From assembly GCA_001563335.1 (NCBI GenBank), contig LRSL01000078.1, positions 1-15,676 on the forward strand: a stretch of DNA of 15,676 nucleotides, written 5' to 3'. Both the position numbers and the translations under genes were made by a program. Below, one piece after another: positions 751-15,676 of the stretch. Each line of letters starts with the position of its first letter. Position 1 is the first letter of the stretch. The notes beneath the pieces are model-generated. The model searched no databases. It saw only the letters and a list, made by a program, of their open reading frames with translations, and was not told where the DNA came from. The DNA is from Candidatus Thorarchaeota archaeon SMTZ1-45 (GTDB taxonomy: Archaea > Asgardarchaeota > Thorarchaeia > Thorarchaeales > Thorarchaeaceae).

Positions 751-3105
751 TTATCGATGATAGGTCAGAACAACATCATTCGATAGGGGGATTAACCTCA
801 GGTGAGGCGACCGATCTTTTACAGCTCTGTCTATTATACTTCCTCCATATGCTTTCACCATTCTCAAAGGAACAGTTTCTGGCACATGGACTTCAATTTC
901 ATCTGGAAGAATTTCCATTCCAGTTTCAATTTGATGTTGATTCGCAGACTGTCCTATTTCAATAGCAGTCTTTCCAAATCTCGTTGGAAGTCCTTTGATA
1001 GTTAGGGGTTTCTTTGCAGTATACCATTCACTAGGTATTCCAGCTAGGAAGACCAGATTGTTGTTGTCCTCATGAACAAGCATGTCACTCAGAAGAAGAA
1101 TGATGTCTGCTGCAGCCAACACACTCGAACCAGTCCCTCCGCCACCTCCAAAGGTTCGAGGACTCACATATTCTGGTAATAGATAATCCTCTGAAAGGAA
1201 TTCAAGAGCTCTTCGGAGAAGAGGTTCTGCGACATCCCGTTGTTTATCCCAAACATGAAACTGGGCAATTCTCATAGCTAGATGACTGGAAAAGGACTCC
1301 TCAGGATGACGAGTTTTCCAGAGACCTCGAATTATTCGTCTTTCAGAAACTTTCTTACACAATAATCGAAGGAATTTCTTATCGAACCCATCGATTCTGA
1401 GTTGAACGATACTTGTTAAGATGTCAAGGATAGCTCTATCAATTTCAAACATCTTAGGGTCTTTTTGACGGGGCCAACGTGCGTTCTGTATTTGTTCGAA
1501 TTGCTCCTGTGCGAGATTTTCAACAATAGAGACCTTATCTTTGATTTTTGCAACCAGACCTACTTCGGTCAGTGTGAAATATGTCACGCTTTCCTGGAGA
1601 GCTGCGAGGTTCCATAGTGATTCATTGAAGTTCTTCAACATTGAAGGATTCAAAACGCTGTAATGTTCAAGAGGTGAATCTTCAAGCTCATCAGTAGATA
1701 GCTCATTGGAAAATTGTTCAGTAGGTTTCTGCCTAGGATGCTCTGCAGTAAGTAATGTAATCATATTCTCAGCCAAGTAAACAAGGAATCTGTGAATGTC
1801 CTGCAATGATTCTCTTTGCAAGGAATAGCCTTGCAACTTTAGAAGCCCCCAAAGTGCACTGTTGAACATTGCAGTGTCAATAGCAACTTCTGAACTTTGA
1901 TAGGTTTTTGATAACTTGTTGGCTATTTTGTTGGCTACGTCAATCCCACCAGATTTGATTAATGCAAGTAGAACTCTAATTCGGTCTCGCCAATTCAAAG
2001 ATGATGTAAAACAATCTTTGTTATGTGAAAACATGACAGAATGTGATTGTATTGCAAGAGAAGCTGCAGCCTGTGAAAGTACTTGATCTAATTCCTCATC
2101 AGGAAAGAAAGCTTCGCCGCGTTTTTTAGTAAATGAATACCATCTTCCAATCGATAGGTTTCGATTGTGATTATCAGGTCTATACTTTGTAAAGGACTCC
2201 CTATCTGACAATACTTCAAGGGGTGAACTAAAAACAATTTTCCTTGTTCCAGCAGGTGAAAGAGTGATAATGAATTTTAGAATAGCAGTTCCAAACCCAT
2301 CTTTGGAGGATAACTTGTAATCATATCGTGTCTTGTCAGTCTGAATGACTTCTGGAATTGTGATGTCGTTTGCTTCAACTAGATAGACTGCAGATGGATC
2401 TATATCAACTTGAAGCGCAGGCTGGTCATTGGCAAAGATTAGGTTATTTTTAGCGTCAAATTCAAGAGTTTCAATTGGTTCAAAGCCTAAAACAGACATT
2501 GGTCTTAGAGTAACATAGAAAGTTATTGTTGCTTCCTCAAGAGCGATGTTCTTCAAAATCACTTCATTGTAAAGATATTCCATTCCTTGCTGTTCCACAT
2601 GATAAATCAGTCTAGTGAATTCAACTGATTGGACATCTGTTTTCCACTCGTAAAGTTGATCTTCTGATGAGATTAATTTTAACTGGGGACCATCCTTTCC
2701 CATGAGTGCGGGAAAGATGATACCATCGGTTCCCAGAACCCAGATATCTATTGAGCCACATCCTGGAATTGCCATAACTAATCCTCGAGAGTCAGATACT
2801 CCAAACTTCTTTGACCCCACGCCACCTATTAGTGACCAGTTACGATACGAGTTGTTTGCTAGTTCTGTAACTAAGGTTTCTTCCTTGTTAATGGCTTTCA
2901 TGATAAGGTCAATCCATGATGGAAGCATCCATGGTGCAGCTTCAAGATACACTGATGCATTTAGTTGCGCTCTCAGCCGCTCAATTTCAGTATCAGCTGG
3001 TATGTCTATTTCAGGGAGTGGTTTTCCATAATTCTGAGCCACTCGTCTGAAACGCTGTAAACGAGCAAGATCATCCATGACCAAATCAAAGAACCTCTTT
3101 GGCAA
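751..3105 (-). CDS. Six-hairpin (alpha/alpha)6 glycosidase-like protein of uncharacterised family (N-terminal beta domain, helical barrel, C-terminal beta domain)
   Basis: 784-aa ORF, TTG start (ATG at 3078 is an alternative). WRD motif (1984-1992), LPEY motif late in the barrel (Glu at 1171-1173), and C-terminal 'MLVHEDNNNLVFLAGIPSEW...GLPTRFG', typical of the end of (alpha/alpha)6 glycoside hydrolase/phosphorylase-like proteins. No signal peptide, so cytoplasmic. Confidence 0.7.
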   Translation of the reverse strand: MPKRFFDLVMDDLARLQRFRRVAQNYGKPLPEIDIPADTEIERLRAQLNASVYLEAAPWMLPSWIDLIMKAINKEETLVTELANNSYRNWSLIGGVGSKKFGVSDSRGLVMAIPGCGSIDIWVLGTDGIIFPALMGKDGPQLKLISSEDQLYEWKTDVQSVEFTRLIYHVEQQGMEYLYNEVILKNIALEEATITFYVTLRPMSVLGFEPIETLEFDAKNNLIFANDQPALQVDIDPSAVYLVEANDITIPEVIQTDKTRYDYKLSSKDGFGTAILKFIITLSPAGTRKIVFSSPLEVLSDRESFTKYRPDNHNRNLSIGRWYSFTKKRGEAFFPDEELDQVLSQAAASLAIQSHSVMFSHNKDCFTSSLNWRDRIRVLLALIKSGGIDVANKIANKLSKTYQSSEVAIDTAMFNSALWGLLKLQGYSLQRESLQDIHRFLVYLAENMITLLTAEHPRQKPTEQFSNELSTDELEDSPLEHYSVLNPSMLKNFNESLWNLAALQESVTYFTLTEVGLVAKIKDKVSIVENLAQEQFEQIQNARWPRQKDPKMFEIDRAILDILTSIVQLRIDGFDKKFLRLLCKKVSERRIIRGLWKTRHPEESFSSHLAMRIAQFHVWDKQRDVAEPLLRRALEFLSEDYLLPEYVSPRTFGGGGGTGSSVLAAADIILLLSDMLVHEDNNNLVFLAGIPSEWYTAKKPLTIKGLPTRFGKTAIEIGQSANQHQIETGMEILPDEIEVHVPETVPLRMVKAYGGSIIDRAVKDRSPHLRLIPLSNDVVLTYHR

Positions 3106-3191
3106 TGTATTCGTGCGGAATAATTACTGAGTTGAATACAGTTTTGGTCCTTTATTTGTATGTTTAGGCTAGCTAGCGAAAAAACGAAGTG

Positions 3192-3223
3192 AGCCCCTAT
3201 CCATGAGCTGGATGATAGGTGCT
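3192..3223. promoter_or_regulatory. Imperfect inverted repeat, candidate transcription-factor site in the divergent intergenic region
   Basis: AGCCCCTATC-N12-GATAGGTGCT, 9 of 10 arm positions pair; abuts a candidate BRE/TATA. Confidence 0.4.
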
Positions 3224-3236
3224 AAACCCTTAATAG
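3221..3236 (+). promoter_or_regulatory. Candidate BRE/TATA promoter of the ABC operon
   Basis: GCTAAACCCTTAATAG: A-rich BRE-like stretch then TTAATA (3230-3235), about 90 nt before ATG 3322, which has a purine-rich SD-like AGAGGGA. Confidence 0.4.
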
Positions 3237-3321
3237 AGTACAACCAAAGGGTGCCTTCGTCAAGTATAATTTGTAGAAAACTTAGTTGAATCTGGTGCCA
3301 CCATAAAAAGAGGGAAACACA

Positions 3322-4503
3322 ATGGCAGAAGTTCTTGCAAAACCATCGCGACGCATCAGGAACATGGTAATGAAAGAACTTCGGTTAATAATCAAGGACA
3401 AGGTCGCCCTCCTCTTGATTTTCCTACTTCCTGCTGCACTAATTGGGATGCTCTGGTATGTAACTGAAACAAGCAGCTTTGGAGGGATGATGGCTGGTGG
3501 CGGAGGAGCAATAGGTGGCGGCGATGATATAGGTAATGAAACAACTACAGATAGTGGGATCAAGTTAGGTATTGTGGACTTAGATACAACCAGAACCTAT
3601 GATGGAGAAGATCTTTCTGAGAACCTGACTGCGTTCTTTGATGAAATGGCGAATATTACTATGTATAATTCGTCTGCAGACGCATACAGAGCACTATATG
3701 ACCAACTGATTGATGCCTACATCGTGATTCCAGATGGATTTGAAGCCAATCTCACCATAAATGAACCAACATATATCGAAGTCCACTACGATGGAAATGA
3801 TTTACTAGCATCAGCATCCATCCAAGGAGTCATACAAGCGGGAACCATTCTATTTAGAGCATCAAAGCTCTGGATTCGCTCAGAAGTCTTTCCTGGTATA
3901 ATTATTGAGTTCACTCCTCAAGGTGGTTACCTCGAGAGCGTCTTTGGAGGGTTCATTGTAATATTCTCAAGTTACCTCGGGATTGCGATGACTTCAGCTC
4001 AATCAATTGTTGGTGATGTACCCCTTCGGAGAATGTTACTTACACCAACCAATAGGCTAGAAGTTATTGTAGCCAAGGTCATTGGGTATGTAATTATTGG
4101 CTTCTTCCAATCACTTTTGTTAGTTACATTATGGGTACTAGCATTTGATCTAAATCTCAACACAAGTTTTATCTCTCTTGTAATCATCATGAGTCTAAGC
4201 TCGCTCACAGGATCGGCCACAGGGATTTTGATTTCATCTGTTGCAGGTACAAGATTACAGGCTAATCAGATGTTCCTCTTTGTCTTATTTGGCACTCTTA
4301 TTCTTTCAGGCTTTTTCATTAACGTTGGAATCTTGGATTCAATACTCCCAATGAACCAAGGACTTAACCTTCTGATTGATACAGCATTCAAGGGACTAAC
4401 CTTACTACAAGTAATTGATAGAATTCTAACTCTGTTTGGTTTCTCTGCCATTGCAATATTACTTGCAACTTTCGTATTCTCAAGGAAACCCACATTGGAT
4501 TAG
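3322..4503 (+). CDS. ABC-2 type exporter permease (YhhJ/YbhR-like, with extracellular domain)
   Basis: N-terminal 'MVMKELRLIIKDK' ABC-2 signature, TM1, extracellular loop (LGIVDLD...AYIVIPDGF...IEVHYDG), five more hydrophobic segments, 'RRMLLTPTNRLEVIVAK' coupling motif. Confidence 0.93.
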   Translation: MAEVLAKPSRRIRNMVMKELRLIIKDKVALLLIFLLPAALIGMLWYVTETSSFGGMMAGGGGAIGGGDDIGNETTTDSGIKLGIVDLDTTRTYDGEDLSENLTAFFDEMANITMYNSSADAYRALYDQLIDAYIVIPDGFEANLTINEPTYIEVHYDGNDLLASASIQGVIQAGTILFRASKLWIRSEVFPGIIIEFTPQGGYLESVFGGFIVIFSSYLGIAMTSAQSIVGDVPLRRMLLTPTNRLEVIVAKVIGYVIIGFFQSLLLVTLWVLAFDLNLNTSFISLVIIMSLSSLTGSATGILISSVAGTRLQANQMFLFVLFGTLILSGFFINVGILDSILPMNQGLNLLIDTAFKGLTLLQVIDRILTLFGFSAIAILLATFVFSRKPTLD

Positions 4504-6195
4504 GTGATGATGAAGATGATATTAGATACAGACCGCTCGGATTTTCCTGAAGAAGAAAAACCAGCTTTTGTCGAAGAAGCATACTTCTCAGGGGCTAGAT
4601 TGAGCGAAGCTATTGATTGGTGTATTACAAGACAGACCCGTGAGTTGCATTGCGAGGTAGAGGGAAAGCTTACAATAACTGGCAGGGATGTGAAATTCAA
4701 AGGTCGAATCTTGAAAGTCAAAAAGGGTGTTCTTACACGTAAGATTGCTGTCTATGTAGAAGAAGACCTCCGTAGACAACGTGTAGGAGAACTTGACAAG
4801 GTACTCACTGTAGGTGGAGAGGGTTCAAGTCAGGATGATATTGCAGCCACGCAAATCACTGTCCAGAACTACTTGAAGAGGAATATGGCTGACGACCTAT
4901 ATTATGATGGTCGGGACCTCCAACAAGCTGTGAAGGACCTTGAAAAAATGAAAAGTCAGGAGGTCGAGTGCACGGTATGGGGTAGAAGAGGTTCTGATAA
5001 GACATTGATTATGATTAAGGGAACAATTGTTGGTGCATCAACCAGACCAGCCCCGATTCTTCCAGAGGGAACTCTTGAGGTACGAGTCGCTCCAGAAGAG
5101 GAGGTTGGAGACCCTAAGATTTACATGGTTGCACAACCCCAGCTTCTGATCGGACCTAGTTATAATCCAAACCTCACAATTCTCGCGAACAAAGTGTACA
5201 TCATGCCTTTCGCTTGGAAACAAGCTCCTGAATATAGAGATGTACTAGCAGCCAGAAATCTGACAGTGGCTATCAAGAGTGGAAAGAAACTCATAGAGAA
5301 TGTGTCATTCTCAATACGAGAGGGAGAAATGCTAGCCATTATTGGAGAGTCCGGTGCAGGAAAATCAACTACTGTGAAAGCGCTAATCGGGGACATTCCA
5401 AGCACAGGTGTGGCAAGAATAGCAGGGATTGATTCAAGGCAGACCCAGAAAGTCAGACATTTCTTTGGATATTGTCCACAGGATCTTTCATACATGTACG
5501 AAACTTTCACTCCCCTTGAGAACATCATAGCCTTTGGAAAACAATATGATATTCCAGAGTGGCAGCTCATTCAGAGAGGCAAGACCCTCCTAAGAGATTT
5601 CGGGATACTGGAGAAAGGGAACAACCAAACCAAAAAGCTGAGTGGAGGGGAACAGAGAAGAGTTTCAATTGGTATTGCGCTCGCACATAAACCAAAGGTT
5701 CTTCTCATGGACGAACCAACCTCAGGTCTTGATCCTGATAATAGAAATGAGCTATGGAGCTATCTATCTTATATCAACCAAGAGTACGGAACTTCGATAA
5801 TTGTCATTACGCATTATCCCGTTGAGGCTGAATTCTGTGATAAGGTGGCGGTCTTTATGCGTGGAAAGAGTCTTGTTGCTTTTGGAAGTCCAGCCTCACT
5901 AAAGGAGTCTATGCCCTCCAGGGGATTTGCAGTTGGGATTGTACTTGAAGAGGTGGACCCAAGAGCAAGAAGGACACTTGAGACTGTGAAGGGAGTTCGT
6001 TTTGTTCTTCAGCGAGGGGAGCTTCTAAAAGTATTCACAGACGAGCCCTTGGAAATAATTGCAGAGGAATGCGTGACAGCTTTAAAGGAACAAGACATTG
6101 TAGTCAAAATTGTAAAAACAAAGTCGGTAGCGGATATGGTTGACTATTATGTCGCTATAACTCGAGGGCTCATTCAAGGTACAATTGAGAAGTGA
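4504..6195 (+). CDS. ABC ATPase (DrrA/CcmA-like) with N-terminal tandem TrmB-effector-like domains
   Basis: Walker A GESGAGKS, Q-loop GYCPQ, signature LSGGE, Walker B VLLMDEP, D-loop SGLD, H-loop ITH. First ~240 aa are not NBD. True start is probably ATG 4510 or 4516, downstream of the SD-like AGGTGA at 4502-4507. Confidence 0.93.
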   Translation: MMMKMILDTDRSDFPEEEKPAFVEEAYFSGARLSEAIDWCITRQTRELHCEVEGKLTITGRDVKFKGRILKVKKGVLTRKIAVYVEEDLRRQRVGELDKVLTVGGEGSSQDDIAATQITVQNYLKRNMADDLYYDGRDLQQAVKDLEKMKSQEVECTVWGRRGSDKTLIMIKGTIVGASTRPAPILPEGTLEVRVAPEEEVGDPKIYMVAQPQLLIGPSYNPNLTILANKVYIMPFAWKQAPEYRDVLAARNLTVAIKSGKKLIENVSFSIREGEMLAIIGESGAGKSTTVKALIGDIPSTGVARIAGIDSRQTQKVRHFFGYCPQDLSYMYETFTPLENIIAFGKQYDIPEWQLIQRGKTLLRDFGILEKGNNQTKKLSGGEQRRVSIGIALAHKPKVLLMDEPTSGLDPDNRNELWSYLSYINQEYGTSIIVITHYPVEAEFCDKVAVFMRGKSLVAFGSPASLKESMPSRGFAVGIVLEEVDPRARRTLETVKGVRFVLQRGELLKVFTDEPLEIIAEECVTALKEQDIVVKIVKTKSVADMVDYYVAITRGLIQGTIEK

Positions 6196-9100
6196 TTCGA
6201 TGGCAGGTCTGAAACAAACATTGATGCATCTGATCCAGAAACTAGCGGCATACTTTCTGGTATACATCATAATTGTTAGTGGACTTTCCGTGTTCCCACC
6301 TGTTGTTGGAATAAGCCCCTATGTGACAGAACCCATGAACAAAATCGATGATTCACTACTCAATCAGACTTCCCTGGACCAGCGCCTTGATGTACTTGTA
6401 GGGTATGATGAAAAAGCAGGTGAAATCAAGGCCAAGAATGCAGTTTTGTTTGCAGACCATACCGCAGAATTGATTGATACATTCGAATCTATTGGTATGC
6501 TCCATGTAAAGATGTTAGGTTCATCTATTGTTGACTTGGCCAAAGAGGCATTCATCACAAGGATATGGTCGAACGAAGTCGCAACGATTGAACAAATACA
6601 GATTACTACAGATGCCACATCATCTTTAGAAGACTATGTACCTCTCATTGACCGAATTGGTGCAAGAGACCTCTGGGATGCTGGATATAATGGAACTGGT
6701 ACTGTTATTGCAGTTCTTGACACAGGTGTTGATCCCCTTCATCCGGACTTCAGCGTATCTGCATTTGCATCATTTGTAGAAGCAGACACCTTACCTCTAG
6801 ACCTTGTTGGACATGGAACATATGCAGCTTCTATAGCAGCAGGTTCCGGAAACATGTCTGAAGGAATATATGCGGGAATTGCACCAGGTGCAACACTGCT
6901 CTCTGCGAAGGTGACCCTCGGAGGACTTTTTGCAGCTCCAAGTTGGATTGTGTCGGGCATTGAATGGGCTAGCAGTCGAGGTGCAGATATCATTCTTCTT
7001 CCATTCAACACTCTGGGTGCTCCCGATGATGCAGTTTCTGAGGCAATCGAGATAGCTGCCAATAAGGGCATCTTTGTCATTGCTGCCTCAGGAGATGACG
7101 GACCGGATTATCTAACTGTTATGTCACCTGGTGGAAATGCAGCATCATTCTGTGTAGGCGCCTATGACACCGAAAAACAGGAGATACCTGACTTCTCTGG
7201 GAGAGGTCCCTCGCTCTCACTACTTACAAAACCGGATTTGGTGGCTCCAGGAGTGGGTGTTGTTGGAGCTAAAGCAGGTGTTGGTCTTTCTAGTCTTGGT
7301 TTTGGAGATATATCACTTAGTGATCTTGGAAACTTAGGTGGACTTGGTGGACTGCTTGGAGGTTCACTTGGTGAAACCATAGATGAGAATTATACAATTG
7401 CAGACACGACCACTGCTTCAGCAGCCATCACTGCAGGTGCAGCAGCAATCCTATTACAAGCGTTTGATAGAGTCACTCCAATAACCTTAGCTAATGTTCT
7501 TCGAAACACTGCAACTCCCATTGGCTACGGTGCTAATGATGGTGGAGCCGGACTTCTCAATTTGCAGGCTGCTTTCAATTATCTAAGTACTAAACAAACT
7601 CCTGGAGATCCACACACGCGAGCAACAAGTTTGCCCCTTCTTGCACTTGGACTTATCACAGCAAGTGGAACAGATGCATCAACTACTTTGCTGATGAGTA
7701 GCTTCGGAACAACTCTCGTAGCTCTTGATGAACGTAATCCTCAGGATTCAGGAATCCATCTGATGATGGGTATGTTCTCTATAAAGTGGAACAATGAAAA
7801 CCCAATGAATCTGATGATGTTTGATGTCAAAAGTGAGTTACATCAAGTGGTTTCAGCTTCAGCTATTACACCGTACAATCGTTATGTTGGTGTGTTGTCA
7901 TATAATGACTCAATCTATGTCACATTCAAAGTTGAATCGTATAATCTTACAACTTACTCGCCTCTACCTCTAACTGCTCTCAGAATTACACCCTATATCC
8001 TCAACCTTGGGAGCGAACCGATTGAGAATGTGAGTCTGTATGTGTCCTATTCATTGGACCTCTATCTTGATGGTGAGTCAGACCATGGTAAATATGACCT
8101 TGACAATCAACAGCTCTTTGCATATGGTCTCTCAGAGAGTTATGGTAACTTTTACGTAGGAATGAACTCAAGTATCCCGCTTTCTGCGTTTGAGGTCGGT
8201 AACTCATCCAACATTGCCAACCATGTGTCAGACAACAATTTGACAGGCTCTACTGTCTTTGATGGCGATGTTGGTTTAGCAATGCAGTGGGATTTTGGAG
8301 CTCTAGATGTTGATGATCTTGCCAATGTAACAATAGCCATGGGTTTTGGTGAAAATCGATCAGTTCTTGATGCATCAATTGATGCCATGTGGCAATATGA
8401 TATTCCCGCGGGTGCTTTAACTCAAGGAGACCTCATTGTTGTAGAGTCTGATGTTCCAAGAATAGCAAAAGCAGGTCAAACATATCAATCAAGAGCTGTA
8501 ATTATGAATATAGGAGAGGAAAACTCCACAGCTATCGGAGCTATGATGGTAGTTGAGGGGTCAGCAGATGAGGGAACTCTATTTGCAAGATATTTCTCCT
8601 ATGATGTGATAGAACCCTTCAAAGCTAAAGTGCTAATGACAGATTGGCGGCCAGAAACAGAGGGTGTGAGAACTGCGGCTTGGGCTGTTTCAACGGGATT
8701 AGATCAAATCGTTAATCTTGTTTCTAATCCTGCAGAACTACTACTCACCATAGGAGTCGGAATCTTGGATGATTTTATACTTCGAGATGTATTCATCATC
8801 ACTCCGATATCATCAACATCAGTATTTCCAAAAGAACTACCATTTGCTCCATTTGACATCCGATTCCCAGCAGATTTTGGTCTCTATAGCTTTGTCTTGT
8901 CCACTACTGAGTCACTTGGAAATCTCACCATTACAAACTACGGAAATGCCTCAGAATGGGGCAATATGTCACTGACCAGCGCAGACACAATTGAAGGATT
9001 CTATGACTTCTCATTATTCTTGCTTTCACCACCCATTGGAATGGACGGGTATCATAGGTGTGACTATGTTCTCAAAACAGAAGCAGGATGGAGTGACAAC

Positions 9101-10567
9101 ATAACACTGGAGCGAGTTTTAGAGTATCCTCGGGCGATGATGCTCTTAGATACTTCACATGGAGGTGGGTTTGGGTCGCTCATGGGAGATATAGGAGGTC
9201 TGGGTGACACAGGGAACCTTACTGGGGATACTGGAATCGGCTTTCCACTAGCCCAAGAAGACACATCAGATGATGACACAATGGGGATGGACTTCAGCCT
9301 GAATGATCTTGATAGTCTGGGATCCATCACTGGTCTCTTTGATTCATTTAGAATGACTACATTCTCTGGGCTATCTAATATGAAGAAGACAATGGCAGAT
9401 GTGGGTCTTGACCTGATAGAAACACCGGGAGTGGAGTTAGACGAAGATCTACTTGCGACTTTCTCGACTGTCTTCATAATTGCTCCAACTGAAGAGTTCA
9501 ATCAGACAGAGATAGATATTCTCCGAGAGTTCACACGCAATGGAGGAACATTGGTCATTCTTGGTGACAATGATGACAACGCAAATACAACTGCACTCAA
9601 TCCATTGCTTTTGGAGTATGGTTACTATCTTTCAGGGAGTCATGATAAAGAGAATACAACAGATATTGTGACAACGAAACCATTGGGTCTCGGTTTGGAT
9701 TGTGTTTGGCTGGGTGGCGGAGCATACATTATGAACAATCAATCTCAAGCTAACGTTAGACTTGATGGAAACAGCGTCGTGGTTTTAGATTCCACAGACC
9801 CGGAACTCGCTATCTTTAGCTCATCGAAAATCTTCATGAACAAGAATCTTGTGAAATGCAACAATAGTATTCTACTAGACAATCTGAATCAATTCCTACT
9901 TCGAAACACTCTGAGTACATCAACAAGTCTTTCAGAGGACACTTTGTATTATCAGGCGGGCAGAAGTGTCTATGTCAATTTACAGATATCAGATTACTAT
10001 GGAAATCCGGTCAATGACTTATTCGTCGCAATCGCGTACGAGCTTCCGAACGGAAGTTTGACATTCTTCATTGCCGGTTTCGTTGAAGACGGTCTCTACT
10101 CATCACAATTTGCACCTAGCTACTGGAGTTCAGAGGGGAGAATAAACGGTATTTTCCTCATTCTTGGTGATGAGAACTATGCCATGACATATGCTAGTGT
10201 AAGCTTCTATTTGTTCGAGATTGAACCCACAATACCTACCGAACCAACAATTGGACTCCTTACTATGGCGGAACTTGCACTTCTTACATCTTTAGGGATT
10301 TTCGGTGGACTCATTGGATATTTGGTCTGGAACCGAAGAAGAATGAAAAAACGTCTCAGGATTCCTGAGATTGAACCTGAGCTCGTTCGAGAGATAGATA
10401 ATACACTAATGGCATTATTGGCAGCCTTCACGCAACTAGAGGACCTCATACAGAGAGAAGACCTTGATAGAATACAGAAAGTTGAGGCACTCCGCGTTCT
10501 CATGCAAGATATTGAAGAAGGACGTAGGATGTTCGAACGCGTGAGCGATAAAGTAGGAGGTGTGTGA
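6185..10567 (+). CDS. Large membrane-anchored subtilase-family (S8) protein, probably catalytically atypical: signal, I9-like propeptide, S8, beta domains/CARDB-like Ig, GIFT (GldG/IFT52/DUF4350-like), Ig-like, TM, cytoplasmic helical tail
   Basis: VIAVLDTG (Asp, 6719), GHGT (His, 6812), FSGRGP and KPDLVAPG motifs; nucleophile motif reads ADTTTASAAITAGAAA instead of SGTSMAxPxVAGAAA. GIFT-like 'LLDTSH...LLATFSTVFIIAPTEEFNQTEIDILREFTRNGGTLVILGD'. TM at about 10256-10330 followed by RRRMKKR. Probable true start is ATG 6200. Confidence 0.88.
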   Translation: MRSDSMAGLKQTLMHLIQKLAAYFLVYIIIVSGLSVFPPVVGISPYVTEPMNKIDDSLLNQTSLDQRLDVLVGYDEKAGEIKAKNAVLFADHTAELIDTFESIGMLHVKMLGSSIVDLAKEAFITRIWSNEVATIEQIQITTDATSSLEDYVPLIDRIGARDLWDAGYNGTGTVIAVLDTGVDPLHPDFSVSAFASFVEADTLPLDLVGHGTYAASIAAGSGNMSEGIYAGIAPGATLLSAKVTLGGLFAAPSWIVSGIEWASSRGADIILLPFNTLGAPDDAVSEAIEIAANKGIFVIAASGDDGPDYLTVMSPGGNAASFCVGAYDTEKQEIPDFSGRGPSLSLLTKPDLVAPGVGVVGAKAGVGLSSLGFGDISLSDLGNLGGLGGLLGGSLGETIDENYTIADTTTASAAITAGAAAILLQAFDRVTPITLANVLRNTATPIGYGANDGGAGLLNLQAAFNYLSTKQTPGDPHTRATSLPLLALGLITASGTDASTTLLMSSFGTTLVALDERNPQDSGIHLMMGMFSIKWNNENPMNLMMFDVKSELHQVVSASAITPYNRYVGVLSYNDSIYVTFKVESYNLTTYSPLPLTALRITPYILNLGSEPIENVSLYVSYSLDLYLDGESDHGKYDLDNQQLFAYGLSESYGNFYVGMNSSIPLSAFEVGNSSNIANHVSDNNLTGSTVFDGDVGLAMQWDFGALDVDDLANVTIAMGFGENRSVLDASIDAMWQYDIPAGALTQGDLIVVESDVPRIAKAGQTYQSRAVIMNIGEENSTAIGAMMVVEGSADEGTLFARYFSYDVIEPFKAKVLMTDWRPETEGVRTAAWAVSTGLDQIVNLVSNPAELLLTIGVGILDDFILRDVFIITPISSTSVFPKELPFAPFDIRFPADFGLYSFVLSTTESLGNLTITNYGNASEWGNMSLTSADTIEGFYDFSLFLLSPPIGMDGYHRCDYVLKTEAGWSDNITLERVLEYPRAMMLLDTSHGGGFGSLMGDIGGLGDTGNLTGDTGIGFPLAQEDTSDDDTMGMDFSLNDLDSLGSITGLFDSFRMTTFSGLSNMKKTMADVGLDLIETPGVELDEDLLATFSTVFIIAPTEEFNQTEIDILREFTRNGGTLVILGDNDDNANTTALNPLLLEYGYYLSGSHDKENTTDIVTTKPLGLGLDCVWLGGGAYIMNNQSQANVRLDGNSVVVLDSTDPELAIFSSSKIFMNKNLVKCNNSILLDNLNQFLLRNTLSTSTSLSEDTLYYQAGRSVYVNLQISDYYGNPVNDLFVAIAYELPNGSLTFFIAGFVEDGLYSSQFAPSYWSSEGRINGIFLILGDENYAMTYASVSFYLFEIEPTIPTEPTIGLLTMAELALLTSLGIFGGLIGYLVWNRRRMKKRLRIPEIEPELVREIDNTLMALLAAFTQLEDLIQREDLDRIQKVEALRVLMQDIEEGRRMFERVSDKVGGV

Positions 10568-11567
10568 TGTGGGAAAATCTGATGTCAAAGAAACCCATCG
10601 TGAGATTGACATCATCGACCTCCAAGTGGCGTTTGGTGACTTCTACGCCTTGAAAGGAGCGTCTTTCTTCGCAAATAAGCGAGAATTCCTTGGTATAATT
10701 GGAGCCTCAGGAGCTGGTAAAACAACAGTTCTTAGAGTACTCACAGGACAAATTGACCCAACTAGTGGAAAAGCATTCGTTGGCGGATATGATGTCACAA
10801 AGAAGGCAAAGCTGATTAGTCTTCTCGTAGGCTATGTTCCTCAACTTGAACATCTGAGTCTGTACTATGATTTCAATGCACTTCAAAACGCTCAATTCTT
10901 CGGAAGGATGTTCGGTCTCAGACCAAAGGAGATTGAAGAGCGAGCGAGAAATATCCTCACAATTCTAGGCTTTGATGAGGAACTAATCACAAAAAGAATA
11001 GAAAGACTCTCAGGCGGAGAACGCAAGAGAGTGTCAATCTGTCTTGGGATGATCCATAATCCCCCTGTGCTTTTGCTCGATGAGCCCACCACCGGGCTAG
11101 ATGCCCATCTACGACATGAAACCCTGAACTACCTGAAGGAGCTAAATTACGAGCTGGGCACAACAATGGTCATCATTAGTCATGACCTTGAGATTGTCGA
11201 TTACTGTACACGAGTATGTCTGCTAGAAGAAGGAGATGTGAGTCAATTCGGGACTCCAGAGGAATTGATCTCAACACTACCTGGAAGAGGAGAGAGCATA
11301 CGTGTTGTTATGCATGCTTTGACTCCTGAAATCATCAAGCGGATAAATTCACTCCCAAGAGTACAATACACTGCACCAGCTGGCAGGAACGCAATGAAGC
11401 TATTCATAGATAATCCGGATCAGCAGCTGCTGCCAATCATCAAGAAACTAAATGAAATGAAACTACCATTCGAGGAGGTCAGTCTTGTTGAGGCAGACTT
11501 CTTTGATTATTTCCAGGTCAAACCCTGGAAACATATTCCTAGTGAGCTAGGAGGAACCACATCATGA
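10560..11567 (+). CDS. ABC ATPase (DrrA/CcmA-like), second NBD of the operon
   Basis: Walker A GASGAGKT, Q-loop GYVPQ, LSGGE, Walker B VLLLDEP, H-loop SHD. Probable true start is GTG 10569, after SD GGAGGTG (10556-10562). Confidence 0.95.
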   Translation: MCDVGKSDVKETHREIDIIDLQVAFGDFYALKGASFFANKREFLGIIGASGAGKTTVLRVLTGQIDPTSGKAFVGGYDVTKKAKLISLLVGYVPQLEHLSLYYDFNALQNAQFFGRMFGLRPKEIEERARNILTILGFDEELITKRIERLSGGERKRVSICLGMIHNPPVLLLDEPTTGLDAHLRHETLNYLKELNYELGTTMVIISHDLEIVDYCTRVCLLEEGDVSQFGTPEELISTLPGRGESIRVVMHALTPEIIKRINSLPRVQYTAPAGRNAMKLFIDNPDQQLLPIIKKLNEMKLPFEEVSLVEADFFDYFQVKPWKHIPSELGGTTS

Positions 11568-14500
11568 AGACATATCATGTGATTATAGCCCTATTGATTG
11601 TCTGCACGCTTGCAGGACTGCAGCTCCAGACAACAGACACGGGTATGACACCCGTGACAATCACGAGTCCACAGGTTCAAGAGGTTCCACACTCACTCGC
11701 GGAGATTGCACCATTCAACACGGCTATTGTATGGTCTACCACAACGGGAAACCAGGTTGTGGACCTTGTTGTTGATAACTTCGATGCAGATGCGCGAGAT
11801 GAGGTGGCGGTCATCACCCAGAATGGTACTCTGTACCTCTTCGATGACAATAGCACACTTTTGTGGAGACTGAAGCTTGGCTCGACACCACGTGCTCTCG
11901 CATCCATGGATGGTACTGCGGCTTCAGGCCAAGAGATACTCATAGGAACAGACTATGGTGTCCTTGTGGTCGGAGCTGATAAGACAGTTCAGATGAACAT
12001 GTCATTGCCAGAACCAGTCCATGCTGTTGGAGGTGGTCATCTTGATGGTGACGGTCTTGAAGAGGTCGTTGTGGGCTGTGACGATTTCTATGTCTATGCT
12101 TTTGAGATTGACACGACTCCGCTCTGGAGCTATCTGAGTAATGGCAGGGTTCGTCTGATCGCTGGTGCGGATATTGATGCAGACACTCGAACTGAGTTTG
12201 TTGTGGCTTCTGAGGGGAAGCGGTTCACCCTCTTGCAGGACACAGGCACTATGGTGTTCGAAAAGTCAAGCCCGACAGATATCAGAGTCATAGCAATGGG
12301 AGATATCACCACAGCAGGGAACTGGGATGTGCTCTATGGAAACAGCAATGGAACTCTCAATGTTTGGTACGATACTGGAGCCCTTGCATTCAAGCTCGAG
12401 GTTGAGAGTAGCATATCGGCCCTGAGAGTCGGAGACCTTGTGACTGGAGGAAGACATGAGTTCGCTCTAGGCACTGCATCAAACCAACTACGAGTATATA
12501 CATCAGCTGGCGTACTGTCTTGGAACAAGACCATGGGTGGACAACCCAATGACATTCGATTCCCCAACATCGGAGCCACTGCAAATGCACAGGTCCTCGT
12601 TGGTACTCCTAATACACTCACGACATACAACACCACTGGTTGGCGTGTGAACCAGTTCACTGCTAATGGATTCACGGGCGCTTTGAGTATCGGAGACCTT
12701 GATAACTTCGGTGGGGAGGAATATGCCTTTGGTACGAACGTAGGTGGCGTGTCAGTGTATGGCAGGGACCTTGACAAGGATGGCCTGGCTGATGCTCGTG
12801 AGATTATCATGGAGGGTACGTTCTACGATGACTCCGATAGCGACAACGATAATCTAAACGATGGGCAAGAAGTGCTTACATATGGCACAGACCCGCTCAA
12901 AGCCGACTCGGACAATGATAAGCTATCTGACTTTGCTGAGGTAATTACACACGGAACAAATCCCAATTCTGCAGACACAGATTCCGATAAACTCACTGAT
13001 TGGCAGGAGGTTTACCTCGGTACAAATCCGAATCAAGCGGACACAGATTCGGACTCGCTTACTGATTATGAAGAAAATAATATCACTCTGACACTCCCTA
13101 CTGACCCAGACAGTGATTCTGATGATATCAATGATGCACAGGATGATAATGATGGTGATGGTCTCACCAACATCCAAGAAGTTCGTATCACAAAGACAGA
13201 TCCTAACGATGTGGATACGGATGGAGACCTAATCTCAGATTATTATGATGACCAGGATGCAGACAACTTAGCAAACTGGAAAGAGATACAACTTGGAACA
13301 GGAGTCTATGATCCTGATAGCGATGACGACCTCTTGAATGACGGGTATGAAGTGAAGACGAGCAAGACCTCACCACTCAATGAAGACACAGATGGAGATT
13401 CATTGACTGATTATGAGGAAGTGGTGATTGTCCATTCAGACCCACTCAAAGCCGATGGAGACGAGGATGGTCTTTCGGACTACGATGAATATGTTGTCTA
13501 TGGTACTGGAGTCTTGGACAGTGATAGTGACGATGACAACTTGAATGATGGAGACGAGGTCAATACCTACTTCACGGATCCCCTGAATAATGACACTGAC
13601 TCTGATAATATTGAGGATGGACTAGAGGTCAATTTCTGGGGCTCAGACCCGAACTCAGCTGACACAGACCTTGACAATCTTGATGACTTTGCAGAGTGCT
13701 ATGTTTGGAACACAAACGTGACAAATAGTGACACAGATGGTGACACTCTAGGAGATGGGCTTGAAGTCCTCACTTATGGAACAAACGCCTCTTTAGTTGA
13801 CACAGACTTTGACCTGCTTCGAGACCCAGACGAGGTGAAGTATCTTGCTAATGGCTGGGACCCAACGAATCCTAATACCTTCGATGCTGGGACTTTGGAT
13901 GGAAACTGGGACTTCGATAGTGACAGACTCACAAACTATCAGGAGATTTACCTAACGCGCACAAACCCAACGCTTGTGGACTCTGGAGGGTTACCACTCA
14001 CTGATGATCTTGAAGATAGCGACCTTGATGGTTTGAACAATTATGATGAATTATACGTGGTTTTCACGCACCCTAGAAACCCGGACAGTGATTCTGACAA
14101 GGTGAAGGATGGAGATGAATGGAATGTTCTCGGAACCAATCCTAACGATGAAGACAGTAACGATAATGGTGTATCGGACTATGATGAGGACTTTGATGGT
14201 GATGGGCTTAGCAATGGAATAGAGTTGTATATCACAAAGACTCTGCATGATGATGCAGACACGGATAATGACTTCATCTCTGACTATGATGATGATGAGG
14301 ATGCGGACTTCCTACCCAACTGGTTTGAGGTGGAGATGACTGGGACAGACCCCTTATACAATGACACGAATGATAATGGAACGTTCGATTGGGAGGAGGA
14401 CTCTGACAATGATGAACTTACGAATCTCGAGGAGTTTCTACATGATTGTGATCCACTAGCTGCTGATACAGATTTAGACGAACTGACTGATGGAGAAGAA

Positions 14501-15676
14501 GTCCTTTACACTCACACGGACCCAACAGACAGTGATGATGATGATGATGGGATTCTCGATGGGCAGGATGACCAAGATAATGATGGTCTCACTAACATTG
14601 AGGAACTTAGGACCTACGATACCAATGTGACTCTGTGGGATACAGATGGAGATCGACTTAGAGATGGACTTGAGATTGATATTGGTCTCAATGCTACAAA
14701 CCCTGATAGCGATGGCGACACATTATATGATGGATGGAATGATGGCAATCTTAATGGTGTCTATGAACCACTCCTTGGAGAGCGCGGAGAGGACGTCAAC
14801 GCGAATGGTGTGGTCAATGTAGGTGAAACATCACCATTTGAGGCTGACAGCGATTTTGATGACTTGGACGATGCCGAAGAGTACCTCTACGGAACAAGCC
14901 CCTTGGATGAGGACAGCGATAATGATGGACTTCTTGATGGAGAGGAAGTCAATGACTATGGAACGAACCCCCTCAATGAGGACTCTGACTCTGATCTTCT
15001 TTCTGACTACATAGAGGTCGAGCTTACCAATACAGACCCGAACAACATGTGGTACAATGGAACTCACACCCATTACATGATTGATAGTGATGGGGACTTG
15101 CTAACGAACGGAGATGAGATTGATATCTACGATACAAATCCTGGAGACTTCGATAGCGACAATGACAACATTGGAGATGGATATGAAGTACTCATCTACC
15201 TTTCAGACCCGCTCTCGAGTGATAGCGATGGTGATGGACTTCAAGATGATGATGAGCTGTTCTATGGCACAAACATCAATGTTCAGGACACAGATGGAGA
15301 TCAGCTCGATGACTTTGTGGAAATCGAGTATCTGGGAACAGACCCATTGTTACCATCCACCAACATGAATGGTACCTTAGATGGTGATCTTGACAATGAC
15401 AGTGACGGACTATCTAATGCAGTGGAGATTTATGGATATCACTCGAACGCAACGGCTCCAGATAGTGATTTAGATGGACTAAACGATGGCTTTGAGGTCT
15501 ATGTATCAGGAACCTCCCCCACGGATCAGGACAGCGATGATGATCAGCTCAGTGACTATGTCGAGTACTGGATTTATCATACTGACCCAAGCGGCACAGA
15601 CAGCGATTCTGATGGACTCGATGACTACTTCGAAGTATATTTCTCATTGACCTCTCCAACGTCTTGGGACACTGAT
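11564..15676 (+). CDS. Giant secreted Ca-binding surface protein/adhesin: signal peptide, 8-bladed FG-GAP-like beta-propeller, long thrombospondin-type-3-like (DxDxDGLxD) repeat region (partial; continues past the right edge)
   Basis: ATG 11564 overlaps the upstream TGA (ATGA), with SD GGAGG at 11550-11554. Manual translation MKTYHVIIALLIVCTLAGLQLQ... shows no stop for 1371 codons to the window end. Not in the ORF track. Confidence 0.93.
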   Translation, partial: MKTYHVIIALLIVCTLAGLQLQTTDTGMTPVTITSPQVQEVPHSLAEIAPFNTAIVWSTTTGNQVVDLVVDNFDADARDEVAVITQNGTLYLFDDNSTLLWRLKLGSTPRALASMDGTAASGQEILIGTDYGVLVVGADKTVQMNMSLPEPVHAVGGGHLDGDGLEEVVVGCDDFYVYAFEIDTTPLWSYLSNGRVRLIAGADIDADTRTEFVVASEGKRFTLLQDTGTMVFEKSSPTDIRVIAMGDITTAGNWDVLYGNSNGTLNVWYDTGALAFKLEVESSISALRVGDLVTGGRHEFALGTASNQLRVYTSAGVLSWNKTMGGQPNDIRFPNIGATANAQVLVGTPNTLTTYNTTGWRVNQFTANGFTGALSIGDLDNFGGEEYAFGTNVGGVSVYGRDLDKDGLADAREIIMEGTFYDDSDSDNDNLNDGQEVLTYGTDPLKADSDNDKLSDFAEVITHGTNPNSADTDSDKLTDWQEVYLGTNPNQADTDSDSLTDYEENNITLTLPTDPDSDSDDINDAQDDNDGDGLTNIQEVRITKTDPNDVDTDGDLISDYYDDQDADNLANWKEIQLGTGVYDPDSDDDLLNDGYEVKTSKTSPLNEDTDGDSLTDYEEVVIVHSDPLKADGDEDGLSDYDEYVVYGTGVLDSDSDDDNLNDGDEVNTYFTDPLNNDTDSDNIEDGLEVNFWGSDPNSADTDLDNLDDFAECYVWNTNVTNSDTDGDTLGDGLEVLTYGTNASLVDTDFDLLRDPDEVKYLANGWDPTNPNTFDAGTLDGNWDFDSDRLTNYQEIYLTRTNPTLVDSGGLPLTDDLEDSDLDGLNNYDELYVVFTHPRNPDSDSDKVKDGDEWNVLGTNPNDEDSNDNGVSDYDEDFDGDGLSNGIELYITKTLHDDADTDNDFISDYDDDEDADFLPNWFEVEMTGTDPLYNDTNDNGTFDWEEDSDNDELTNLEEFLHDCDPLAADTDLDELTDGEEVLYTHTDPTDSDDDDDGILDGQDDQDNDGLTNIEELRTYDTNVTLWDTDGDRLRDGLEIDIGLNATNPDSDGDTLYDGWNDGNLNGVYEPLLGERGEDVNANGVVNVGETSPFEADSDFDDLDDAEEYLYGTSPLDEDSDNDGLLDGEEVNDYGTNPLNEDSDSDLLSDYIEVELTNTDPNNMWYNGTHTHYMIDSDGDLLTNGDEIDIYDTNPGDFDSDNDNIGDGYEVLIYLSDPLSSDSDGDGLQDDDELFYGTNINVQDTDGDQLDDFVEIEYLGTDPLLPSTNMNGTLDGDLDNDSDGLSNAVEIYGYHSNATAPDSDLDGLNDGFEVYVSGTSPTDQDSDDDQLSDYVEYWIYHTDPSGTDSDSDGLDDYFEVYFSLTSPTSWDTD
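11717..12766 (+). repeat. Eight ~40-aa FG-GAP/VCBS-like propeller blades
   Basis: Blade cores: DNFDADARDEVAV, MDGTAASGQEILI, GHLDGDGLEEVVV, ADIDADTRTEFVV, GDITTAGNWDVLY, GDLVTGGRHEFAL, PNIGATANAQVLV, GDLDNFGGEEYAF; N-terminal NTAIVWS could supply the closing strand. Confidence 0.8.
12767..15676 (+). repeat. Protein-level tandem array of bacterial TSP3-like Ca-binding repeats: 36 complete long units (mostly 22-23 aa) plus 10 short (11-12 aa) units
   Basis: Consensus D-[ST]-D-x-D-x-L-x-[DN]-x-x-E-x4/5-T-[DN]-P-x3, e.g. DSDNDNLNDGQEVLTYGTDPLKA; counted by hand. The DNA is diverged between units. Confidence 0.92.

Follow-up and report, generated by a model that had tools for sequence, protein, structure and literature searches.

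An ABC-2 Transporter Encoded with a Predicted Pseudo-Subtilase–GIFT Membrane Protein across Families of Asgard Archaea

Introduction

According to the excerpted text of PMC9127263, the proteins GldA, GldF and GldG are needed for gliding in Flavobacterium, and GldF and GldG are needed for the localization of GldA to the membrane. Here we analyze a group of genes from Candidatus Thorarchaeota archaeon SMTZ1-45 in which the same types of component, that is, an ATP-binding cassette (ABC) ATPase, a permease of the ABC-2 fold and a membrane-anchored protein with a GIFT domain, are encoded together. The window is a stretch of 15,676 nucleotides (nt) and comprises the whole of contig C78 (LRSL01000078.1) of genome G000 (GCA_001563335.1; 3.54 Mb in 119 contigs, 87.7% complete). 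The phylum to which Candidatus Thorarchaeota belongs is now named Promethearchaeota and corresponds to the Asgard archaea. No closer relatives of eukaryotes are known, and next to nothing is known of the way in which these archaea construct their cell surface.

The other described counterpart is a eukaryotic protein, site-1 protease (S1P). In the excerpted text of PMC11231238, S1P consists of an S8 protease domain, a P-like beta-sandwich (residues 479-616), a GIFT subdomain (617-998), a transmembrane (TM) helix and a short tail, and its catalytic residues D218, H249, S414 and N338 are described as essential. The GIFT-domain protein of the window has the same order of domains. A first-pass annotation of the window proposed that its genes encode a GldAFG-like machine in which an atypical subtilase assists the transporter in acting on a giant calcium-binding adhesin. 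We find that the transporter genes and the subtilase-like gene are kept together across many Asgard families, that the protease site is degenerate and that the adhesin is confined to one order. Full-text literature searches with terms on the GIFT domain and Asgard, site-1 protease and Asgard, IFT52 and GldG (which gave papers on cilia), and Thorarchaeota subtilisin, ABC and S-layer (judged by title or abstract of the papers listed) found no description of such a system. The pairing of transporter and apparently dead protease is without a described function.

Gene Order and Conservation

Five open reading frames (ORFs), all on the + strand, run from position 3322 to the end of the contig with junctions of -4 to +4 nt. 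The first, g1 (3322-4503; 393 amino acids, aa), encodes an ABC-2 permease, g2 (4504-6195; 563 aa) a long ABC ATPase, g3 (6200-10567, 1455 aa, or 1460 aa from an alternative TTG start at 6185) a predicted pseudo-subtilase–GIFT membrane protein, g4 (10569-11567, 332 aa, or 335 aa from an alternative GTG start at 10560) a short ABC ATPase, and g5 (11564-15676; the first 1371 aa of an ORF left open by the contig end) a giant surface protein. The TAG stop of g1 at 4503 is followed by several options for the g2 start (GTG 4504, ATG 4507, 4510 and 4516), the TGA stop of g2 at 6195 by the g3 ATG at 6200, and the TGA stop of g3 at 10567 by the g4 GTG at 10569, which is preceded by GGAGGT at 10556-10561; the TGA of g4 (11565-11567) overlaps the ATG of g5 at 11564 (ATGA). 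Base-by-base reading and Pfam thus bear out the first-pass annotation as to five co-oriented genes, junctions of a few nucleotides and the domains that it named, and the ORF layout likewise bears out the interleaving of large surface-protein genes with transporter genes.

Conservation of this arrangement was assessed at 41 loci around g3-like or g2-like matches, where ORFs were compared with the proteins of the window (at one, L039, the g2 frame had been removed by the ORF overlap filter and was located by a separate g2 search). A g3-type gene adjoins ABC genes in 30 of the 35 Asgard genomes inspected, the window included. These genomes belong to eight families (working labels f1, f2, f12, f21, f24, f26, f27 and f9) and display at least five gene orders. 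The order of the window, g1-g2-g3-g4-g5, characterizes f1, the family of the window, and f2; it is found in all six loci of the genus, in seven of eight loci from other genera of the family and in the one genome of the second family. Family f12 has g1-g2-g3-g4 and lacks g5, whereas f26 has g4-g1a-g1b-g2-g3; in genus g65 of f9, g4 is divergent from g1a-g1b-g2-g3, and in f21 and f27 the order is g2-g1-g4 with g3 divergent. The two f24 genomes differ, with g1-g2-g3 running to the contig end in G161 and a mixed-strand cluster in G160. Two permease paralogues are present in six loci (G166, G163, G167, G170, G181 and G179), the f26 and f9 versions among them. Gene neighborhood had been suggested in the first-pass annotation as a check on its reading, and the unit of ABC genes plus g3 passes that check.

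Two irregular loci were observed in passing. In G370 (L028 and L130, on one contig), g1-g2 are found near 1.586 Mb and a 5'-shortened g3, g4 and a g5 that is divided between two ORFs near 2.05-2.06 Mb, reflecting either a rearrangement or an assembly fault. In G138 the g3 ORF (L034:5642-8077) encodes just 811 aa and small ORFs fill the space before g4, so that the gene is either broken or misassembled.

Co-occurrence was examined in a sample of 400 genomes of the phylum, with the N-terminal domain of g2 and the middle region of g3 as markers. The former is present in 124 genomes and the latter in 126; both occur in 115 genomes and neither in 265, with g2 alone in 9 and g3 alone in 11. Six of the 11 genomes with g3 only were inspected, and all six encode a long g2-type ATPase beside g3.

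FastTree phylogenies of g1, g2, g3 and g4 from 26 genomes, including those of family f7, in which g3 is unlinked from the ABC genes, are congruent. Patristic distances correlate at r 0.94-0.98, 12-15 of 23 splits are held in common, and the g2, g3 and g4 trees have an identical backbone that extends to f7. Independent phylogenies, which the first-pass annotation had named as a result that would count against it, are therefore not what these trees show. In all four trees the cluster of f9 genus g65 (L128, L132) nests within f26 (L041, L044, L126, L127, L131), and the g3 middle region is found in just 4 of 135 f9 genomes. Such a pattern would be expected from transfer of the entire cluster in one piece, or else from its loss in most of f9.

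Two broader searches also returned g3 relatives. Scanning genome contigs with the g3 alignment gave at least 80 loci, of which 4 (L046-L049; two titled Thorarchaeota or Promethearchaeota and two "uncultured archaeon") match beyond the S8 domain and 76 match in S8 only; the scan patterns were drawn from the S8 domain, so that this distribution is no test of absence outside Asgard. A word-based protein search with the region of g3 that follows S8 gave 145 matches. The best 120 of these 145 are 54-100% identical, and all of them that bear a name are assigned to Thorarchaeota, Promethearchaeota or, once, Lokiarchaeota, distant relatives being out of reach of a search of this kind.

The g3 Protein

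From its N-terminus g3 comprises a hydrophobic segment (6257-6313, by hydropathy), an S8 domain (6692-7534, by Pfam, PDB match and alignment), a long middle part rich in beta structure, a GIFT domain, another beta domain, a TM segment and a helical tail. The S8 domain has the subtilisin fold, as indicated by its match to Pfam Peptidase_S8 (E 2.7e-37, 129.1 bits) and by its closest PDB match, Tk-SP (3afg; E 1.7e-39). The catalytic aspartate (D174, 6719-6721) and histidine (H205, 6812-6814) are kept. In place of the nucleophilic serine there is a threonine (Thr405, 7412-7414), and in place of the oxyanion asparagine there is an aspartate (Asp299, 7094-7096).

We compared these positions in an alignment of 21 g3-like proteins, that is, 17 members of the ABC-type clade and four stand-alone relatives. 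Within the ABC-type clade the nucleophile column holds alanine in ten proteins, threonine in three (including g3 of the window), glycine in two, leucine in one and serine in one only, that of G362. The oxyanion position is aspartate in all 17 and asparagine in the four stand-alone relatives; the catalytic histidine has been lost in 5 of 17 and the catalytic aspartate in 3 of 17, whereas all four stand-alone relatives retain the complete Asp, His, Asn and Ser set. Because the catalytic residues are degenerate across the clade, g3 is, as judged from its residues, a catalytically dead protease or pseudoenzyme, and a dead site implies that it would bind or scaffold rather than cut. The earlier designation as an atypical subtilase is therefore to be corrected to that of a pseudoenzyme with nucleophile and oxyanion residues replaced. 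Relatives of g3 are named "S8 family serine peptidase" in databases, and the alignment corrects this annotation for proteins that lack the catalytic residues.

Just before the former serine motif, the S8 domain carries an insert of 32 residues rich in Gly, Ser and Leu (7277-7372, from the alignment). A second loop of the same composition lies at residues ~990-1047 before the GIFT domain (model residues 521-578, predicted local distance difference test [pLDDT] below 50). Both loops are kept across the clade and are probably disordered.

The part of g3 that follows S8 was modeled from residue 470 to 1350 (model me43c82b1cb14; pLDDT 72, predicted template modeling score [pTM] 0.52). Residues ~479-742 (7634-8425) form a beta "super-sandwich" that resembles the domain which GH15, GH94 and GH116 enzymes carry at their N-terminus (1ug9, Z 21.8, root-mean-square deviation [rmsd] 3.6 over 243 residues; 1lf6, Z 20.6; 4zle, Z 18.9). 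The GIFT domain, at residues ~978-1237 (9131-9910), is indicated by model, profile and Pfam alike. It superimposes on the N-terminal domain of IFT52 (5fmr_A) with Z 21.9 and rmsd 2.1 over 196 residues at 19% identity, and a profile of 15 g3 orthologues matches 5fmr at E 1.6e-11. In Pfam, g3 scores 32.2 bits on IFT52_GIFT (PF23355), above the cut-off of 27.2, and 25.4 bits on ABC_transp_aux (PF09822), below the cut-off of 34.7, a gathering score that its f7 orthologues exceed (36.8 and 37.6 bits); DUF4350 is matched as well. When longer stretches are considered, the GIFT domain together with the following beta domain aligns with OST48 (8b6l_N) at Z 19.0 with rmsd 14, and model residues 6-767 align, through sandwich and GIFT in that order, with residues 456-873 of S1P (9csd_A) at Z 18.3 over 307 residues with rmsd 8, a value which means that the domain arrangement of g3 differs from that of S1P or is poorly modeled.

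Toward its C-terminus g3 has a TM segment (10274-10330) followed by a helical cytoplasmic tail of about 75 aa, the two together spanning 10274-10564 by hydropathy and alignments, and a consensus of the tail is kept in the orthologue alignments. N-x-S/T sequons number 24 in g3 as compared with 10.8 +/- 2.9 in shuffled sequences, and none of them lies in the tail, which speaks for exposure at the cell surface. Hydropathy confirms the hydrophobic N-termini that had been noted for g3 and g5, in addition to the C-terminal TM segment of g3, and both N-terminal segments are probably Sec-type signals. Complex prediction for g1 with the C-terminal 426 aa of g3 gave a score of 0.00 in both runs, each with one permease copy and without controls, a result that counts neither for nor against an interface.

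The ABC Transporter

The permease g1 matches Pfam ABC2_membrane_3 (E 5.6e-30), and according to its hydropathy profile a first TM segment is separated from five later hydrophobic segments by an extracytoplasmic domain (about 150 aa). Among NCBIfam models the permease region of RbbA scores 43.5 bits, DrrB and others are matched as well, and no GldF-type model is matched even at E<=10.

Both ATPases match Pfam ABC_tran, g2 with E 1.7e-27 over residues 265-407 and g4 with E 3.8e-26, and Walker A, LSGG, Walker B and H-loop are all kept in the two proteins (in g2 as GESGAGKST, LSGG, LLMDEP and ITH). Their nucleotide-binding domains are 32-34% identical to each other. That of g2, together with a DrrA-type C-terminal extension, occupies 5248-6195 according to Pfam, NCBIfam and the motifs; g4 has such an extension too, and the drrA subfamily is the top NCBIfam match of both (175 bits for g2, 183 bits for g4). 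The top matches of g2 among PDB sequences are the nucleotide-binding domains of ABCA3, ABCA7, ABCA1 and ABCA4 and the structure 4yer. By the ABC-2 family match of the permease and the intact motifs of the ATPases, the three proteins belong to the type-V (ABC-2 fold) transporters.

What sets g2 apart is an N-terminal cytoplasmic domain of about 245 residues (4504-5247), for which an AlphaFold model from 21 orthologues (pLDDT 82, pTM 0.76) displays two small beta-barrels. The first (residues 18-124) resembles the C-terminal barrel of TrmB, a sugar-sensing regulator (3qph_A, Z 15.4, rmsd 1.9 over 93 residues at 22% identity; 2f5t_X, Z 14.8), the next-ranked structure reaching only Z 7.3, and this likeness is also found by Foldseek (E 4.9e-6) and by Pfam Regulator_TrmB (E 3e-7). 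The second barrel has weak structural matches to Sm-like proteins (Z 5-6).

The g5 Surface Protein

After a signal-like N-terminus g5 continues with an FG-GAP-like beta-propeller (to ~12823) and then with acidic calcium-binding repeats of the TSP3 type, and Pfam accordingly matches beta-propeller families and TSP3_bac repeats (E 1.6e-14). Recovery of its C-terminus had been proposed in the first-pass annotation. The remaining 873 aa are encoded on contig C33 of the same genome (C33:2-2623, locus L137) and are 82% identical to the C-terminal part of an orthologue; since this C-terminus opens C33, contigs C78 and C33 abut, with about 30 residues of repeat left unassembled between them. Full-length orthologues measure 2245-2277 aa in 12 loci of f1, and that of f2 measures 2196 aa. 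In these proteins a TM segment at ~2130-2148 is followed by a strongly conserved cytoplasmic tail of about 125 aa.

In every f1 and f2 case g5 follows g4. Strong matches to its propeller (E <= 1e-30) are found in 67 of 86 f1 genomes (G000 included) and in the single f2 genome, whereas in the other 313 sampled genomes of the phylum all matches are weak ones of the generic FG-GAP kind, to proteins that differ in size. The earlier view of this adhesin as part of a conserved machine is not sustained by this distribution: being confined to one order, g5 is an add-on, and the conserved core consists of g1, g2, g4 and g3. Spread over 14 repeat stretches, the score of a full-length orthologue on the CglD model of NCBIfam (NF033765) is 322.8 bits, short of the cut-off of 400.

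Downstream of the end of g5, contig C33 holds a YhhN gene (3247-3933), a TPR gene for a protein of 420 aa (4004-5266) and a gene for a PALP enzyme. A second permease, which had been thought possible at this place, was not found there; relatives and contig C33 show beta-helix, YhhN and TPR genes, and it is in f26 and f9 that two permease genes do occur. A TPR gene for about 420 aa lies behind g5 in both g5-bearing families (L018:2084-3373(-), L029:394-1656(-), L030:17986-19269, L032:895-2151(-), L033:18007-19260 and L137:4004-5266), separated from it by 110-530 nt or, in this genus, by one or two inserted genes, and its product may interact in the cytoplasm with the conserved tail of g5. The NosD-like beta-helix gene behind g5 in G008 was considered as a part of the system and rejected, for it has no BLAST relative in the other loci.

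Stand-Alone Relatives and Neighboring Genes

Four membrane proteins of other Asgard families combine S8 and GIFT domains outside any g3-type cluster (L022:5016-8831, L023:11282-15220(-), L024:1749-5762(-) and L025:11285-15058(-)). They are 1257-1337 aa long with an intact Asp-His-Asn-Ser set, three of the four have a zinc-ribbon cytoplasmic tail, and they are encoded beside housekeeping genes. The L025 protein adjoins an FtsX permease and an ABC ATPase and matches Pfam MBTPS1_4th (E 3.8e-5). Among PDB sequences, the part of the L023 protein that follows S8 matches IFT52 only (E 9.7e-5), and no match to S1P is obtained. In length and, as predicted from its residues, in chemistry, this stand-alone and putatively active clade is nearer to eukaryotic S1P than g3 is.

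Upstream of the operon and divergent from it lies g0 (751-3105, - strand; 784 aa). The 216 nt between g0 and g1 (3106-3321), which we read directly, contain the ribosome-binding site of g1 (GAGGG) as well as, some 50 nt before the ATG of that gene, a stretch rich in A+T, and this region may act as a promoter. The g0 protein has no match in Pfam, NCBIfam or PDB sequences (PDB at E<=1). In 13 of the 14 other loci of f1, BLAST detects a relative upstream of g1, and we regard this cytoplasmic protein as a conserved neighbor within the family whose membership in the system is unproven. Its neighbors in the ESM Atlas are clusters resembling six-hairpin glycosidases (Bac_rhamnosid6H, MGH1-like_GH and GDE_C), which we take as a lead only; g3 bears a beta-sandwich of the kind found N-terminal in such six-hairpin glycosidase-like enzymes. 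Downstream of g0, a gene for a TPR_12-type protein occupies 3-647 on the - strand and runs off the start of the contig. In f7 (L020, L021) the g3 genes, unlinked from the ABC genes, are flanked by genes for TPR_12 proteins of 275 aa and for MIT-domain proteins of about 1,040 aa.

Discussion

We propose that g1, g2, g4 and g3 form one membrane complex in which g3 is a dead accessory subunit, a reading that we hold to be probable, if well short of certain. The products of g1, g2 and g4 would constitute a type-V transporter powered by two different ATPases, both of them catalytically competent by motif, and g3 would be its extracytoplasmic subunit, glycosylated, anchored in the membrane and built in the domain order of S1P, including a propeptide-like region. 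ATP hydrolysis on g2 and g4 would drive the transmembrane and outer domains of g1, and this movement may extrude a membrane-embedded substrate, probably lipid-linked or glycan-bearing, or merely transmit motion. The ectodomain of g3, with its carbohydrate-enzyme-like sandwich, closed protease groove and GIFT scaffold, may receive or hold the substrate at the cell surface, and the TrmB-like domain of g2 together with the conserved tail of g3 could serve as a cytoplasmic point of control or docking. In Thorarchaeia and a sister family the operon would then have recruited g5, a calcium-binding stalk of fixed length (~2,270 residues) with an integrin-like propeller and a conserved tail of its own, which is most likely a lineage-specific client or co-anchored partner and not the reason for the existence of the complex.

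Several points weigh against this proposal. Gene linkage, co-occurrence, congruent trees, domain folds, replaced catalytic residues and intact ATPase motifs are shown by the genomic observations; that the proteins associate in a complex, which way transport runs, what is transported and what g5 does are what we infer from them. One permease gene stands against two different ATPase genes, which is an unusual stoichiometry, and no gene of the operon points to a substrate. Adjacency of g3 and the ABC genes is not obligatory, given that f7 (G030, G040 and G148) has a g2-g1-g4 operon with a dead g3 elsewhere in the genome, that the genes are scattered in f22 (G157) and that in G370 the operon is split into g1-g2 and g3'-g4-g5, 470 kb apart. 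Congruent trees and co-occurrence among kin would also be expected from vertical inheritance of two unrelated genes, as relatives are not independent. With pLDDT 72, pTM 0.52 and multi-domain rmsd values of 8 and 14, the model of g3 makes secure only the domain order and the folds of single domains. Finally, Thr405 of the g3 in the window could in principle still act.

This last point is the starting place for the idea that g3 is still an active protease, with Thr405 as nucleophile or activated by a partner, which processes g5 or other surface proteins in the manner of S1P or a mycosin while the ABC transporter exports the products or a cofactor. The window protein does keep Asp174 and His205, G362 has a serine, and the top NCBIfam match of g3 is the type VII secretion system mycosin model (103.8 bits, below the cut-off of 278.75). 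We nevertheless consider activity very improbable: relatives carry Ala, Gly or Leu at the nucleophile site in 13 of 17 clade members, which makes conserved catalysis in the clade unlikely, the oxyanion aspartate is universal among the 17, and the loss of His in five and Asp in three amounts to free variation as compared with the four stand-alone relatives, in which all four residues stand. The pseudoprotease models CspC and CspBA are also among the weak NCBIfam matches. Equally improbable is export of both giant proteins by the ABC transporter, acting as a type-1-like or dedicated exporter that secretes or inserts them, even though the transporter genes are interleaved with theirs. The first-pass annotation had already doubted such a role, and rightly so, for in both g3 and g5 a hydrophobic, signal-like segment at the N-terminus and a TM anchor toward the C-terminus point to Sec-dependent insertion; moreover, g1 is an ABC-2 permease that bears an outer domain, unlike the exporters that serve for proteins, and g5 is absent from most lineages that have the ABC genes.

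Of the accounts that compete with an accessory role for a dead g3, the one put forward in the first-pass annotation fares best and still appears unlikely. It holds that a GldAFG-like machine with g3 as accessory releases, remodels or positions g5 as a device for surface adhesion or motility, and it can draw on the translational coupling of g5 to g4 through the ATGA overlap, on the narrow length range and highly conserved cytoplasmic tail of g5 and its constant place behind g4 in f1 and f2, on the 322.8 bits that g5 scores on the model of a Myxococcus gliding adhesin, CglD, and on the need for GldA, GldF and GldG in Flavobacterium gliding (PMC9127263, excerpted text). The core of ABC genes and g3, however, occurs without a g5 orthologue in f12, f21, f24, f26, f27 and f9, so that the adhesin is not its general substrate and acting on an adhesin is not its general function. 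Repeats account for the CglD match, which does not attain the cut-off, no component reaches the model of GldA, GldF or GldG, and gliding is not known from archaea. A more skeptical account, in which an ordinary efflux pump of the ABC-2 type, acting on a drug, a lipid or an ion, is encoded beside unrelated surface proteins that inheritance alone has kept nearby, strikes us as rather improbable. In its favor, the evidence is genomic throughout and comes from relatives that are not independent, f7 and f22 have the genes unlinked, and the nucleotide-binding domains score best on the generic drrA subfamily. But adjacency has survived at least five rearrangements of order and strand over eight families, which neutral inheritance does not predict, the junctions overlap or measure a few nucleotides, and in each of the four trees the f9 g65 cluster falls within f26, as though its genes had travelled together. 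A bolder account, which we likewise rate as improbable, would make the whole an ATP-powered machine for adhesion or tension. An ABCA-like heteromeric engine and an S1P-like clamp made from a dead protease would move or load an integrin-like stalk (an FG-GAP propeller and about 1,700 residues of calcium-binding repeats), both surface proteins would signal through their conserved cytoplasmic tails, and the Asgard S8-GIFT proteins, an active stand-alone clade and a dead ABC-bound clade, would be the prokaryotic stock of the GIFT modules of S1P, OST48 and IFT52.

Whichever account is preferred, the ABC and pseudoprotease set is among the most conserved surface-related gene sets of the phylum, with its markers in 115-126 of 400 sampled genomes. 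The coupling of an ABC engine to a protein that is built like S1P and has a GIFT domain shared with OST48 and IFT52 bears on the origin of these eukaryotic modules. The four proteins also represent a purifiable target for learning what GldG-type "auxiliary" proteins do at ABC-2 transporters.

Comparison with Known Systems

As a transporter, the Asgard core resembles NosDFY and ABCA-type machines, which act via an extracytoplasmic domain or partner. The permease fold is type V and the ATPases belong to the DrrA/NodI/ABCA group; the differences are that the core has no NosD- or NosY-type protein and that permease and ATPases are on separate polypeptides. The fate of the protease site in g3 is paralleled by the pseudoproteases CspC and CspA of Clostridioides difficile, which keep a subtilisin fold with a non-catalytic triad for binding or signaling. 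These are soluble spore proteins, however, without GIFT domain, TM anchor or ABC partner, and g3 matches the NCBIfam models CspC_non_triad and CspBA only weakly (35 and 39 bits against cut-offs of 675 and 1250).

For the GIFT domain of g3, the best single-domain structural matches are IFT52 and OST48 (Wbp1), both of them non-catalytic scaffold subunits of larger machines. IFT52 is cytoplasmic and OST48 is part of a glycosyltransferase complex, and neither is tied to an ABC transporter or to a protease fold. By its build as a whole, g3 is nearest to S1P (MBTPS1/SKI-1; 8uw8, 8uwc and 9csd), which has signal, pro-region, S8, beta-sandwich, GIFT, TM segment and cytoplasmic tail in the same order. 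At the level of sequence the profile of g3 orthologues matches the GIFT region of 8uwc/8uw8 only (E 3.7e-4, 75 residues). Unlike S1P, g3 shows Asp in the oxyanion position and Thr in that of the nucleophile (Ala, Gly or Leu in its relatives). About 450 additional residues stand between its S8 and GIFT domains, and it is encoded within an ABC operon.

The likeness to GldAFG that was noted at the outset holds for the types of component, since an ATPase, an ABC-2-fold permease and a membrane-anchored GIFT protein are encoded together, and fails at the level of families. It extends to the wider "ABC-type uncharacterized transport system" with an accessory protein of the Pfam family ABC_transp_aux, whose gathering score the f7 orthologues of g3 exceed. 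The GldA model (TIGR03522) has a cut-off of 402.6 bits, of which g2 reaches 100.1 and g4 135.5, and drrA gives the higher score for both. On the GldG model (TIGR03521), the sole NCBIfam model matched by the C-terminal part of g3, the final 426 aa score 14.9 bits (E 0.0077) and an f7 orthologue 14.7 bits against a cut-off of 389.85. The Asgard system further differs in having two distinct ATPases, one with a TrmB-like N-terminal domain, in a permease of the ABC2_membrane_3 family with an outer domain that matches no GldF-type model, in the size of g3 (~1,450 aa) with its apparently dead subtilase head and extra beta-sandwich domains, and in its host, an archaeon with a single membrane. By type of component, GldAFG is all the same the nearest described arrangement, just as S1P is the nearest protein by build.

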